Positions 35,045 through 52,556 of a stretch of 64,000 nucleotides of DNA are shown piece by piece. Under the pieces are notes generated by a model. The model saw only the letters and a list, made by a program, of their open reading frames with translations. It ran no database searches and was not told the DNA's origin. The stretch spans positions 67,022,001 through 67,086,000 of the forward strand of contig OX597828.1 in the NCBI GenBank assembly GCA_951406725.2, written 5' to 3'. The position numbers and the translations under genes are program-made. Each line of letters opens with the position of its first letter. Positions within the stretch are counted from its first letter, which is position 1. This stretch comes from Octopus vulgaris (lineage: Eukaryota).

Positions 35045-35541
35045 TGCCAGACAGTGGCTCTCATCTTAACTGATTGGAAGTGTTATCATGTACATTGTTT
35101 TGTCTTGGTATAAAAGATGGGTTACAGCAAATATTCTGCTCAATACCACAGATTTACTTGTCAGTTGTTTGACCTTAACCAATTGAGCATGTCCCTTAGT
35201 GGCTGACGATATGTGCATCTCTGATCACGAGCATAAGTAGTGGAGGAGCATCATAGCCGTGTGTTGAGAGGGATTCTTGGAGGTTTGGATAATTCACCTT
35301 TGGAAACATGGGTGTTTCGTTCAACATCCTTAAACAGCCCTTATTCAGGGACCTTTTGAGCGGGATGGGCTACTCGACCAGAAGAAAATTCTAACTGGGC
35401 CCCATCTGCAAGGTCATGCACTGTTTATCTTGATATGAGATCACCATGTCGCGCACATATGGTTGTGATGTATGTGCCTAGTGTACCCTTATCAGACGGG
35501 TAGTCATGATGGGTATACTGAGCTTTGTATATTTTACCCCA
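35045..35541 (+). mobile_element. Family D ((TAA)n-associated ~550-bp element), ends trimmed
   Basis: Aligns with 36137-36671 and the minus-strand copies. Confidence 0.9.
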
Positions 35542-35563
35542 TAATAATAATAATAATAATAAT

Positions 35564-36070
35564 ACACTTTTCAAAAACGTGATACGAACATAAACCTGAA
35601 GTCATCATCGAAAATGATAATGCTAAGATCCTATGGGATTTTATGATTCAGTGCGACCATGAAATAGAGAATCGGAAACCAGACATAGTGTTAATTAAGA
35701 AAGAAAGCAAACGATACTGGATCATAGATATAGCATGCCCAGTTGACAACAAGGTATGCGATGAGGAAGAAAGAAAAGTCGATAGATATGACAGGTTAGC
35801 TTGGGAGGTTAAGCAGTTGTGGTCGCTGAAAAAGGTTGTAGTAATAACAATAATTGTCGGAGTCCTGGGAACAATGAGCAAAAATCTTGAGAAGTATACG
35901 GAACAAATAGGGGCTGCAGTAAGGGTGGAACGCTTACAGAAAATAGCACTGCTTAGAACCGCTCGAATACTCCGGATGGTGTTCGAAAATAAGGGTTGTT
36001 ATCTTTGTTCACTGGTAGTGAACAGCTGGCACCGTAGTACATCTCCAGCGTCAGAAGCTGTGCAAAGGAA
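35564..36070 (+). pseudogene. R4/Dong-clade retrotransposon 3' end: restriction-like endonuclease, in (TAA)n
   Basis: ENDNAKILWDF.IQCDHEIENRKPDIVLI...IIDIACP.D...KVDRY (PD-(D/E)xK), GVLG, LQKIALL.TARILR; flanked by TAA repeats, the known Dong target. Confidence 0.9.
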
Positions 36071-36136
36071 ATAATAATAATAGTAATAGTAATAAACATA
36101 ATAATAATAATGATAATAATGATAATAATAATAATA

Positions 36137-36671
36137 GCAGTACCAGGCAGTGGCTCTCATGGCTTCTGATCTTAACTGATTGGAAGTGTTATCATGTACA
36201 TTGTTTTGTCTTGGTATAAAAGATGGGCTACAGCAAATATTCTGCTCAATACCACAGATTTGCTTGTCAGTTGTTTGACCTTAACCAGTTGAGCATGTCC
36301 CTTAGTGGCTGACGATATATGCATCTCTGATCACGAGCAGAAGTAGTGGAGGAGCATCATAGCAATGTGTTGAGAGGGATTCTTTGGGGTTTGAATAGTT
36401 CACCTCTGGAAACATTGGTGGTTCTTTCAACATCCTTAAACAATCCTTATTCAGGGACCGTTTGAGCGGGATGGGCTACTCAACCCGAAGAAAATTCTAA
36501 CTGGGCCCCACCTGCAAGGTCATGTGCTGTTTATCTTGATATGTCGCGCACATATGGTTGTGATGCATGTGCCTGGTGTACCTTTATCAGACGGGTAGTC
36601 ATGATGGGTATATTGGGCTTCGTATATTTTACCCCAGTGTCACTTTGATGGCATGAACTGCTCTCTCACTC
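36137..36671 (+). mobile_element. Family D, near full length
   Basis: Flanked by (AAT)n on both sides. Confidence 0.9.
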
Positions 36672-36710
36672 AATAATAATAATAATAATAATAATAATAA
36701 TAATAATAAT

Positions 36711-36841
36711 ATTTCTTTACTACCCACAAGGGGTTAAACAGAGAAGACAAACAAGGACAGACAAAGGTATTAAGTCGATTACATCGACCCCAGTGCGTAA
36801 CTGGTACTTAATTTATCGATCCCGAAAGGATGAAGGGCAAA
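36711..36841 (-). mobile_element. SINE family B, 3' part
   Basis: tactacccacaagggg...gaccccagtgcgtaactggtac...aaaggatgaagggcaa. Confidence 0.85.
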
Positions 36842-36870
36842 AAAAAAAAAAAAATAATAATAATAATAAT

Positions 36871-36940
36871 TGCCCTGATGCAATACCAGGCACTGACTGT
36901 CATAGCTTCTGATCTTAACTTATTGGAAGTGCTATTGTTT
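36871..36940 (+). mobile_element. Family D, 5' fragment
   Basis: tgccctgatgcaataccaggc...cttctgatcttaact, after (TAA)n. Confidence 0.8.
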
Positions 36941-49560: not shown

Positions 49561-50489
49561 CACAAACCGCCTTAGAACCACACGCTATCGTCTTAAACAG
49601 AAGTACATGGGTGATAATGTAATCCTAAATACACTGTATTGACCAACAGTACATGATGGCCACGATCGGAACGTCTTAATGATAGGTCTACTCAGTAGGT
49701 CTACTGTCGGATAAAGAGCAACAACAACAACAACATATCGTGAACCATCGATTGTGGTAGCCGTTCCAACTGCTGGAAATAGTAGCCAAATCTCTTTCAA
49801 ATCCCATCTTACTGCTTTAGAAATGGAAAAATTCTTTGAATAATGGACTTCTAGAATCATTATTCTGAAAATAAAATGGGGTAGTCACGGTTGGATTGTC
49901 TTTAATAATAAATCCGTTTCGTCGCAACTAAGAAAAGAACTACAAAGTAACAACACGAAGAAACTACCACCAACGGCGTATCATTAGTTATTTTTAATTT
50001 AATTTTTTAAAATTTCCAATTTGGTGGCGATAATTTCCTAGATCAATCACCAGCACACCATGTGACATTTATAATAATTGCACTTTTTTAGTGGAAGAAG
50101 AAGAAATTCCAAGATTGCAATATTTAAATCCAACAATTCAAAATTATTCTTTAAAATGTTTAAGAATTCAAACTATAACCTTTCTTAGAAGAAACGACCT
50201 GAATTACATTAACGATATAATTACCACAATATATAAAGAAAAAGAGAAAAAGAGAAAAGCTCTCTTGTAAATAGATTCATCATTTCTTCAACGAAGTTCA
50301 TGTTAATTACGCTAGTAAAAAGTCTTGGAATTCCTTGGCCCCACACTTGTTGTGACTCAAAGCAATTATGCCAAACTGAAACCTATTTATTTTTAACTCC
50401 TCTGTTGGCATTATATTAAAATTGTTCATATCATCGTTATCATTATCAGTTATGGCATCGTCATCATTTGCATCATCATCAACAAAGTA

Positions 50490-50655
50490 ACGGGCTGGCA
50501 GAATCGTTAGCACATAGGAAAAAAATGCTTAGAGACACTTTTTTTTCGATTCTTTACATTTTGTGTTCAATTCCTGTTGAAGTCAACTTTGCCTTTCTTC
50601 CTTTCAGAGTGGATAAAATAAAGTACGTGTCAAGTAATGGTGCCTATGTAATTGG
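50490..50655 (+). mobile_element. SINE family B, degenerate
   Basis: gctggcagaatcgttagcac head; gtcaactttgcctttcttcctttc core. Confidence 0.7.
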
Positions 50656-50707
50656 CTTACTCTTTGTCAGTCGTCCACAGCTAGTAAAGTATGGTAACAC
50701 TCTTCAT

Positions 50708-51246
50708 TCAGAATTCGAGAAATCTGTGGAGGCTTCGTGCAATTTCCAAGCAACAGTTTTGAAGATGCCCTGTCTTTGCATTTCTCTCAATCCAGCTGGT
50801 CATCCTGGTCCCCAACAACATGACCAACACTCACCTTTTTCAATGACCAGAGTCTTTTTATCTTTCAATTCAAATCATATTACCTGGACTGTTTCTCTTC
50901 TTCTCTTTCCGGTATCCAATCATCAACAGGGCAGGCAATATCTATGGTTAATTAAACAGATTTTTTCCCTTTATTCACAACCACTATAACCGGCTTTCGA
51001 CGTTCAATTCCATGATTACTTTGCATTATTACATCCCACAGTATCGTTACCTTGTCATTATCGATTACGCTTTCTGTTGTTGTTTTCCCATACCACGGCT
51101 TTGTTCCATCCAAACCATACTTAACTACACATCTCTGAATGAATCATTCTTGAGACATTATTCTCTTCTTTGTGGGCCAGCTTCGCGCACTCACTCACAA
51201 TATGCCAATCAAACCTTTATCAGCGCCCTTGTCGCTTTCTGTTGTA
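50708..51246 (-). pseudogene. Degenerate R4/Dong RLE C-terminal fragment
   Basis: WHIVSECAKLAHKE, VIDNDKVTILWD, IERRKPVIVV, IDIACPVD, RLWSLKKV; homologous to 35564-36070. Confidence 0.85.
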
Positions 51247-51694
51247 CCACAACCATATGTGCGCGACATGGTGATCTTATATCAAGATAAACAGCACATG
51301 ACTTTGCAGGTGGGGCCCAGTTAGAATTTTCTTCAGGTTGGGTGACCCATCCCGTTCAAAACGTCCCTGAATAAGGGTTATTTAAGGATGTTGAACGAAA
51401 CACCCATGTTTCCAGAGGTGAATTATTCAAACCCCAAAGAATCCCTTTCAACACATGGCTATGATGCTCCCCCACTACTTCTGCCCATGAACAGAGATGC
51501 ACATATCGTCAGCCACTAAGGGACATGCTCAAGTGATTAAGGTCAAACAACTGACAAGCAAATCTGTGGTATTGAGCAGAATATTTACAGTTAGCCCATC
51601 TTTTATACCAAGACAAAACAATGTACATGATAACACTTCCAATCAGTTAAGATAAGAAGCCACGAGAACCACTGCCTGGTACTGCATCAGGGCA
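51247..51694 (-). mobile_element. Family D, 3'-truncated, joined directly to the Dong fragment
   Basis: 5' end at (TTA)n 51697; 3' side runs into RLE coding sequence with no TAA spacer. Confidence 0.88.
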
Positions 51695-51696
51695 TT

Positions 51697-52003
51697 TATT
51701 ATTATCATTATTATTATTATTATTATTATTATTATTATTATTATTATTATTATTATTATTATTATTATTATTATTATTATTATTATTATTATTATTATTA
51801 TTATTATTATTATTATTATTATTATTATTATTATTATTATTATTATTATTATTATTATTATTATTATTATTATTATTATTATTATTATTATTATTATTAT
51901 TATTATTATTATTATTATTATTATTATTATTATTATTATTATTATTATTATTATTATTATTATTATTATTATTATTATTATTATTATTATTATTATTATT
52001 ATT
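51697..52003. repeat. (TTA)n tract, ~300 bp
   Basis: Directly visible. Confidence 0.97.
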
Positions 52004-52556
52004 GAGTGACAGAGCAATGCATGTCATCAAAATGACACTGGGGTACAAATATACGAAGCCCAATATACCCTTCATGACTGCCCTTCTAATAAGAATACAC
52101 CAGGCACATGCATCACAACCATATCTGCACGACATGATGATCTCATATCAAGATAAACAGCACAAGACTTTGCAGGTGGGACCCAGGTAGAATTTTCTTC
52201 TGGTCGAGTAACCCATCTCGCTCAAAAGGTCCCTGAATAAGGGTTGTTTAAGGATGTTGACAGAACTACCCATGTTTCCAGAGGTGAACTATTCAAACCC
52301 CAAAGAATCCCTCTCAACACATGGCTATGATGCTCCACTACTTCTGCTCGTGATCAGAGATGCACATATCGTCAGCCACTAAGGGACACGCTCAACTGAT
52401 TAAGGTCAAACAACTGACAAGCAAATCTGTGGTATTGAGCAGAATATTTGCTGAAGCCCATCTTTTATACCAAGACGAAACAATGTACATGATAACACTT
52501 CCAATCAGTTAAGATAAGAAGCCACGTGAGCCACTGCCTGGTACTGCATCAGGGCA
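52004..52556 (-). mobile_element. Family D, full length
   Basis: Flanked by (TTA)n on both sides. Confidence 0.9.

Follow-up and report, generated by a model that had tools for sequence, protein, structure and literature searches.

Features of the window and the D family

We analyzed a 64,000-nucleotide stretch of Octopus vulgaris DNA (GenBank assembly GCA_951406725.2, contig OX597828.1, positions 67,022,001 to 67,086,000 of the forward strand; hereafter the window), in which a short repeat family, designated D, lies in tracts of the trinucleotide TAA next to fragments of R4/Dong-like long interspersed nuclear elements (LINEs). An earlier annotation made from the sequence (the original prediction) had described eight copies of D and proposed that D is a non-autonomous partner of Dong, either a short internally deleted element (SIDE) or a short interspersed element (SINE) without a tRNA head, mobilized by the Dong restriction-like endonuclease (RLE) and reverse transcriptase (RT). 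We find that D is a real, abundant, TAA-targeted non-coding family. Coordinates are positions in the window, and positions within the element are numbered from D 1 to D 555. The features at the locus are listed below.

33804-35043, plus strand: long, degenerate (AAT)n tract that includes CAA/CAG units and precedes D copy 1
35044-35541, plus strand: D copy 1, 5' terminus kept, two small 5' deletions, final 35 nucleotides (nt) gone, followed by (TAA)7
35564-36069, plus strand: Dong-A, a 5'-truncated R4/Dong-like LINE with RLE C-terminus, stop codon at 35991-35993, and 79-nt 3' region, followed by (AAT)n
36070-36136, plus strand: (AAT)n tract from Dong-A to D copy 2
36137-36671, plus strand: D copy 2, D 10-555 (first 9 nt gone), nearest to the consensus (97%), flanked by (AAT)n on both sides
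36672-36870, plus strand: (AAT)n tract broken by a SINE fragment (36709-36842) in the opposite orientation
36871-36935, plus strand: D copy 3, consisting of D 1-65 and cut by the broken Gypsy-like remnant of the next entry
About 36936-38185: gag/protease remnant of a Gypsy-like element, carrying stops and frameshifts and inserted at D 65
38234-38419, minus strand: (AAT)n tract, doubling as the (ATT)n tail of the SINE fragment at 38170-38233
38420-38765, minus strand: D copy 4, 3' two-thirds; 5' third lost at a (TG)n run
47762-48316, minus strand: D copy 5, full length, lying between (AAT)n tracts
48317-48445, minus strand: (AAT/AAC)n tract between D copies 6 and 5
48446-48559, minus strand: D copy 6, 3' half (D 442-555)
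48560-51247, unstranded: 2.7-kb composite insert splitting D copy 6, with the same 5 bp (CACAA) at both borders
From 48560, plus strand: RTE-like RT remnant inside the 2.7-kb insert
Near 50490-50672: SINE remnant inside the 2.7-kb insert
50814-51204 (extent of matches), minus strand: Dong-B, a second Dong-like C-terminal remnant, inside the 2.7-kb insert
51248-51695, minus strand: D copy 6, 5' half (D 1-446)
51696-52003, minus strand: nearly perfect (AAT)n tract, roughly 100 units long, between D copies 7 and 6
52004-52557, minus strand: D copy 7, full length
52558-52657, minus strand: (AAT)n tract upstream of D copy 7

Using two full-length copies as blastn queries, we recovered the same eight pieces as the original prediction and no further matches in the window. 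The count of eight holds for pieces but not for insertions: those at 51248-51695 and 48446-48559 are halves of a single copy split by the 2.7-kb insert, so the window contains seven insertions. Only the copies at 47762 and 52004 are intact and full length. The majority consensus is 555 nt long with 45% GC, and the pieces are 87.7-97.0% identical to it. Among the six long copies, the mean pairwise Jukes-Cantor distance is 0.10, or approximately 0.05 per copy, which would make them roughly 14 million years old if the clock of PMC13282606 applies.

As predicted, the family is non-coding and lacks terminal inverted repeats. The longest stop-free stretch in six frames is 57 amino acids, neither tblastx nor blastx detected a coding remnant in D (best E value of 1.9 by blastx against 30 Dong-like proteins), and no open reading frame (ORF) within the window is linked to D. 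Terminal inverted repeats were absent from all three copies tested; with no terminal arms and all seven insertions in one polarity, D does not resemble a miniature inverted-repeat transposable element or any other DNA transposon with such arms. The folding of D as a whole is unremarkable (z = -1.60 for the sense strand and -0.36 for the antisense strand), and of 20 folding windows the lowest score (z = -2.5) belongs to the 100 nt at the start of the antisense strand. The copy at 52004 has a hairpin at its 5' start, a TATA-like word at D 88, and an internal AATAAT at D 267, and the sense strand of D carries three T4 runs, at 77, 333, and 511. No Rfam family reached its gathering score within the window. 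One D copy with its flanks gave six sub-threshold Rfam matches at E ≤ 10, the best of which is driven by the AAT flank. Possible likenesses of the 5' hairpin loop to a loop of U2 snRNA, and of the D 20-55 segment to 5S RNA, gained no support from Rfam.

D insertions lie in (AAT)n tracts in a single polarity

The sense strand of D is adjoined by (AAT)n at all 12 free ends, comprising six 5' and six 3' ends, and the remaining four of the 16 piece ends are secondary breaks. All seven insertions have the same polarity relative to (AAT)n, which is also that of the RLE fragment at 35564. As background, window positions directly behind an (AAT)n tract amount to 2.3% on the plus strand and 1.4% on the minus strand. 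Among three other repeat families in the window, two of which show ordinary target duplications, only 1 of 18 copies abuts such a tract. The D copies form two clusters in which several copies have tracts in common, so their ends are not fully independent trials. Because 6/6 free 5' ends are located at (AAT)n, the repeat is a target of D and not only its tail. These observations bear out three earlier claims, namely that every intact end abuts TAA repeats, that D inserts into them, and that its orientation follows the TAA strand as does the RLE fragment. Within the window, D sits at the target of its proposed partner and in the partner's polarity, as expected of a SIDE.

Dong-like LINEs in the window and their relatives

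Translation of 35583-35990 yields an RLE C-terminus that is 74% identical to P0001. Pfam named nothing on this fragment itself (best E value of 0.032). RVT_1 is carried by 19 of 30 longer hits related to the fragment, with three confirmed by Pfam, and the closest solved structures to the long relatives are R2 proteins. The RT, CCHC knuckle, C-terminal RLE, and (TAA)n on both sides are those of an R4/Dong LINE; assignment of the fragment at 35564 to this clade rests on these features rather than on alignment to a named Dong reference. Dong-A and Dong-B both face as D does, and their 3' regions bear a weak mutual resemblance (p = 0.03).

For comparison, we fetched 80 Dong-like loci from other sources, 63 of which have a readable C-terminus. 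Downstream of the C-terminus, 34 of these carry (AAT)n, two carry mixed GAT/AAT repeats, none carries (ATT)n, and 27 have no tail, although 8 of the 27 contigs end within 130 nt. Among the 15 loci with a long ORF, (AAT)n directly precedes the 5' untranslated region (UTR) in five, and the 3' UTR is 54-120 nt long in most tail-bearing loci. TAA repeats are the described target of Dong (PMC1635306, PMC3812793). In O. vulgaris, Dong-R4 is reported to comprise 51 families, 92.7 Mb, and 1,129 recent insertions (PMC13282606), and a repeat library of O. bimaculoides includes full-length Dong (PMC9115989). R4-Dong is described as almost confined to cephalopods among molluscs (PMC10294476) and as expanded in coleoids (PMC8967140).

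Several features of the Dong-like loci were noted by inspection. Three full-length elements (L010:78-160, L013:105-190, and L015:1-45) start with what appear by eye to be tRNA-like heads, directly after the repeat tract; ARAGORN and Rfam made no call on these heads. Two 3' UTRs (L015:3394-3602 and L018:843-1179) pass into (CCCTAA)n telomere-type repeats rather than (AAT)n, a possible shift of target. The 5' UTRs of L019, L021, L026, and L031 share a conserved hairpin whose loop is able to pair with the first bases of the element after (TAA)n, and this pseudoknot, missed by both Rfam and the ribozyme descriptor described below, is possibly a variant ribozyme. An ACCAGC...GCTG stem lies a few bases before the tail in L011, L013, L021, L023, and 11 more loci from different hosts, and by eye also in Dong-A (36022-36069). 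L080 is a Dong-like eukaryotic LINE within a contig filed as a Poribacteria metagenome-assembled genome, which is probably host DNA. A Dong profile search yielded no confirmed viral locus.

D is abundant and divided into subfamilies

We then surveyed D in Logan contigs. At least half of the words sampled from D were present in 14 of the 24 runs listed, under five coded organism labels, and the run holding most of D may be the source of the window itself. Six of the 24 are RNA runs with a small share of the words; these are mixed samples and indicate neither expression nor habitat. When D copy 7 was mapped to four runs, two of DNA and two of these mixed RNA samples (X15 and X18), 72,890 and 41,416 contigs were recovered from the two DNA runs. 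The ratio of median summed depth to single-contig depth was approximately 75,000 and 47,000, values that are not copy numbers. Crudely, D is a very high-copy family, of the order of 10^4-10^5. LINEs pile up at their 3' ends, whereas cover of D spans the whole element and its 5' half is covered no less than its 3' half (5.9 versus 4.0 million in one run and 3.2 versus 1.6 million in the other, with private changes of the reference copy lowering the 3' figures). Among the 40 of 261 entries listed, seven sites have markedly different frequencies in the two DNA runs (e.g., 0.31 versus 0.90), which fits lineage-specific subfamilies of the master-gene type. The terminal motif of D had no matches in metagenome and viral contigs.

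The loose ends of D in these contigs were examined among 18 listed of 1,609. At one locus of run X15 (two contigs), D starts near position 213 directly behind (AAT)n, the pattern of a 5' truncation in the sense of D. A foreign, AT-rich repeated sequence joins D near 268, at its only internal AATAAT, in 133 and 163 contigs of the two DNA runs and in one contig of an RNA run. This sequence is possibly a sister element, the 5' end of the partner, or a hybrid subfamily. The junction, corresponding to window position 52290, reads TAA then ATG, like D's own. In run X9, 94 contigs carry D from approximately 106 (window 52452) behind a different head, in which a short piece of the neighboring D sequence recurs in inverted form. 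Both foreign motifs are absent from the window. Minor joints connect the head of D to internal places near 33, 138, and 233, with no direction given.

D compared with established transposon classes

SINEBase defines SINEs by a head derived from tRNA, 7SL, or 5S RNA with an internal RNA polymerase III (Pol III) promoter and by reverse transcription through a partner LINE (PMC3531059). D resembles such elements in being shorter than 700 bp (555 nt), non-coding (57 amino acids at most), and followed by a simple-repeat tail, (AAT)n, but lacks the Pol III head. No pair of A and B boxes was found in the first 110 nt on either strand, by a scan that detected three of seven local SINE controls, and no tRNA gene was found in the window. 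Together with the Rfam result, this agrees with the original view that D is not derived from tRNA. The T4 runs in the sense strand likewise argue against Pol III.

D also does not qualify as a solo long terminal repeat (LTR). Its ends are readable as TG...CA, but the base before TG is unfit for a constant target duplication, and such duplications are unreadable inside a repeat tract. No AATAAA or ATTAAA polyadenylation signal is present in D. A Penelope-like pseudo-LTR (pLTR) is similarly not indicated, as neither of the two CTGANGA words in D is accompanied by stem II and GAAA.

Proposed mobilization of D by Dong and alternative explanations

The ends of D are fixed, it contains neither an ORF nor a tRNA head, its insertions are flanked by (AAT)n in the polarity of Dong, and it occurs in very high copy number with subfamilies. 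We favor, with moderate confidence, the interpretation that D is a non-autonomous, non-Pol III retroposon copied in trans by the protein of an R4/Dong LINE. We infer from the target and the polarity that Dong is the likely driver. The sense strand used here is likewise the probable one, as a SINE with (ATT)n on both sides in the window would allow the opposite polarity. In the proposed mechanism, the Dong RLE would nick (TAA)n and the Dong RT would copy D RNA from its (AAU)n 3' end by target-primed reverse transcription. Since we found neither a Pol III head nor a ribozyme like that of hepatitis delta virus (HDV), the template would probably be a transcript made by Pol II or by read-through and flanked at each end by (AAU)n. 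These repeats would let the upstream part of the cDNA anneal to the target, which may explain why copies are mostly full length. Annealing of this kind has been suggested for R2 RNAs in which target sequence persists upstream and whose 5' junctions are uniform (PMC3774820). In a bolder extension, which we think rather doubtful, the target repeat would itself be the cis-signal: an (AAU)n-flanked read-through RNA with no promoter head, ribozyme, or partner tail would suffice for the Dong protein to prime and then seal a full-length copy, and D would be one of several passengers that interrupt and lengthen TAA tracts throughout octopus genomes. A candidate for a second passenger is the repeat that joins D at the internal AATAAT, with the same TAA-then-ATG junction.

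Several results weigh against mobilization by Dong. A SINE at 47530-47745, which is not among the 18 control copies, is bounded by (ATT)n on both sides in the polarity opposite to D, and repeats on both sides alone therefore do not name Dong; its relative at 38170-38233 carries an (ATT)n tail. Truncation in the window is symmetric, with one 5' and one 3' copy. The evidence from flanks is that of the seven insertions in the window, as the stretch used in Logan showed no sequence beyond the ends of D. The 16 and 1 D contigs of the two mixed RNA runs do not amount to a transcript of D itself. SIDEs are described as a 5' ribozyme joined to the 3' end of the partner (PMC3414825), and Dong of Bombyx mori has an HDV-like ribozyme that self-cleaves at the (TAA)n junction (PMC3774820). 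An HDV-like descriptor matched none of the eight D pieces or the consensus on either strand, with or without flanks. Relaxing its L3 constraint produced nothing starting at the 5' end of D, and no Rfam ribozyme family matched D at E ≤ 10. The descriptor was validated on synthetic sequences only (50 of 50 recovered) and was also negative for the beginnings of 10 foreign Dong 5' regions, and Rfam had no match on 17 Dong loci, so the negative result for D is of moderate weight. At the other end, the last 100 nt of D matched neither Dong-A nor Dong-B 3' regions (shuffle p = 0.55 and 0.92, respectively) nor any of the 80 foreign loci significantly (best E value of 1.4), and none of the 18 loose ends listed of 1,609 had the 3' part of D leading into a LINE.

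With no HDV-like fold at the 5' end, and no shared 3' end found among the two local Dong 3' regions and the 80 foreign loci, the original proposal that D is SIDE-like is unsupported, and nothing here establishes that D arose from Dong by deletion. A true SIDE, in which the 5' and 3' UTRs of an unseen Dong family from the same genome had been joined, would be a special case of mobilization by Dong that differs only in origin, and we consider it rather unlikely. Room for it is left by the 51 Dong-R4 families of O. vulgaris (PMC13282606); the comparison covered two local 3' regions. A lead is a CCAG...CTG stem word near the tail, shared by D and 8 of 21 non-redundant Dong 3' UTRs against a background of 3.3%, but the motif was loosened after D had been seen. 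The best local alignment of D to the Dong-A UTR is in register at the 3' ends (19/28) but not significant (p = 0.55), and the invariant Dong letters differ in D. A covariance model of 15 Dong stems matched neither D nor its Dong-A positive control and is thus uninformative. The short Dong 3' UTRs (mostly 54-120 nt in tail-bearing loci) and the missing ribozyme also speak against this origin. Alternatively, D could be read on its other strand, as an (ATT)n-tailed retroposon of another LINE in the same tracts, either the one that mobilizes the local ATT-tailed SINE or a Hero family with a microsatellite target. The SINE between (ATT)n runs and its (ATT)n-tailed relative have that polarity, copy 1 is missing 35 nt at what would be its 5' end, the best folding window is antisense, and the joints of the D head to internal places are readable either way. 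Some Hero families target microsatellites (PMC4640811), and Hero occupies 8.2 Mb in O. vulgaris (PMC13282606). We nevertheless regard this as unlikely: the other strand has no A/B box pair, no fragment of Hero was found in the window, the RLE elements that occur there all share the polarity of D, and truncation at the X15 locus affects the 5' side of D.

A terminal repeat or UTR that has become separated from an autonomous element (a solo LTR, a Penelope-like pLTR, a tyrosine-recombinase terminus, or a long UTR of an unseen RLE family) would be compatible with the TG...CA ends, the TATA-like word at D 88, the T4 runs that disfavor Pol III, and the joining of D parts to other repeats (296 DNA contigs near D 268 and 94 near D 106 among the loose ends listed), and Penelope-like elements make up 191 Mb in O. 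vulgaris (PMC13282606). However, an A precedes TG in four of five intact 5' ends, which does not suit a constant target duplication, and D has no polyadenylation signal, terminal inverted repeat, or hammerhead core with stem II. Coding sequence adjoins none of the intact D ends in the window, the Gypsy-like remnant lies at D 65 instead of beyond the 3' end, and blastx against the 30 Dong-like proteins found nothing better than an E value of 1.9, making such a source quite unlikely. Spread without RNA, in which a unit flanked by (AAT)n would loop out and enter further (AAT)n tracts through homology, would yield full-length insertions of one polarity without promoter, ribozyme, or shared UTR. 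The very high copy number, the fixed ends without captured flanking DNA, and the run-specific subfamilies fit a master-gene retroposon better, and we judge spread at the DNA level to be very improbable.

Other observations in the window

The other repeats in the window look to us like octopus SINEs, and we presume that OK, OR1, and OR2 are probable co-residents. The 2.7-kb insert at 48560-51247 places old RTE, SINE, and Dong remnants within a younger D copy and has GTAC at its start and end; it resembles genomic DNA acquired by templated insertion, or else a join made during assembly. Elsewhere, a 243-bp inverted repeat with 100% identity (16349-16591 and 18832-19074) surrounds a microsatellite-rich stretch.

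Comparison with known systems

Precedents for non-autonomous partners of RLE LINEs are already known in R2 SIDEs and in EhSINE1 of Entamoeba histolytica, whose EhLINE partner we take to belong to the R4 clade. In our literature search, neither a Dong partner with a microsatellite target nor a paper giving the motifs of D was found; Repbase, Dfam, the Zenodo library of PMC13282606, and subscription papers lay outside this search and may contain D, in which case the gain would be the assignment of its target and partner. The repeats reported for O. vulgaris include 1,279 unclassified SINE families and 1,102 unknown families (PMC13282606), and D would put a name on one of many such unclassified repeats. 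It would also reveal what the Dong protein requires in its RNA, which bears on RLE elements as gene-insertion tools. A practical caution is that repeated sequence often flanks the (AAT)n markers of these genomes.

The octopus tRNA-SINEs OK, OR1, and OR2 (cited in PMC3531059 and PMC4758252) are, like D, short, high-copy, and non-coding, but they are shorter, with tRNA-like heads and dispersed sites bearing ordinary duplications; D has no such head. Dong and Rex6 share with D the target, the polarity, and (TAA)n on both sides (PMC3774820, PMC3812793, PMC1635306), and the junction phase of D, TAA then element, is that of the B. mori Dong primer and of loci L021 and L031. Dong is autonomous and about 3.5-4.3 kb long in the fetched loci, and in B. 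mori it starts with G and self-cleaves, whereas D starts with A and has no ORF and no detected ribozyme.

EhSINE1 resembles D in its length of 500-600 bp, conserved ends, lack of a small-RNA ancestor, and RLE partner LINE, but has a 3' end of about 70 bp in common with EhLINE1, no sequence target, and ordinary target duplications (PMC2996970, PMC1635306). D, in contrast, is tied to (AAT)n and showed no partner-shared end against the two local Dong 3' regions and 80 loci. The R2 SIDEs and R2/R1 hybrid SIDEs of Drosophila are, like D, short, non-coding, target-specific, and not transcribed by Pol III, and they rely on a site-specific non-LTR element and on co-transcription, as D would (PMC3414825). 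They differ in joining the R2 ribozyme to the 3' end of the partner, in residing in ribosomal DNA (rDNA), and in being called rare in that source, whereas neither module was seen in D, which sits in microsatellites and is very abundant. To the known partners of site-specific RLE retrotransposons, rare SIDEs in rDNA and untargeted EhSINEs, D would add a microsatellite-tied family of tens of thousands of copies.

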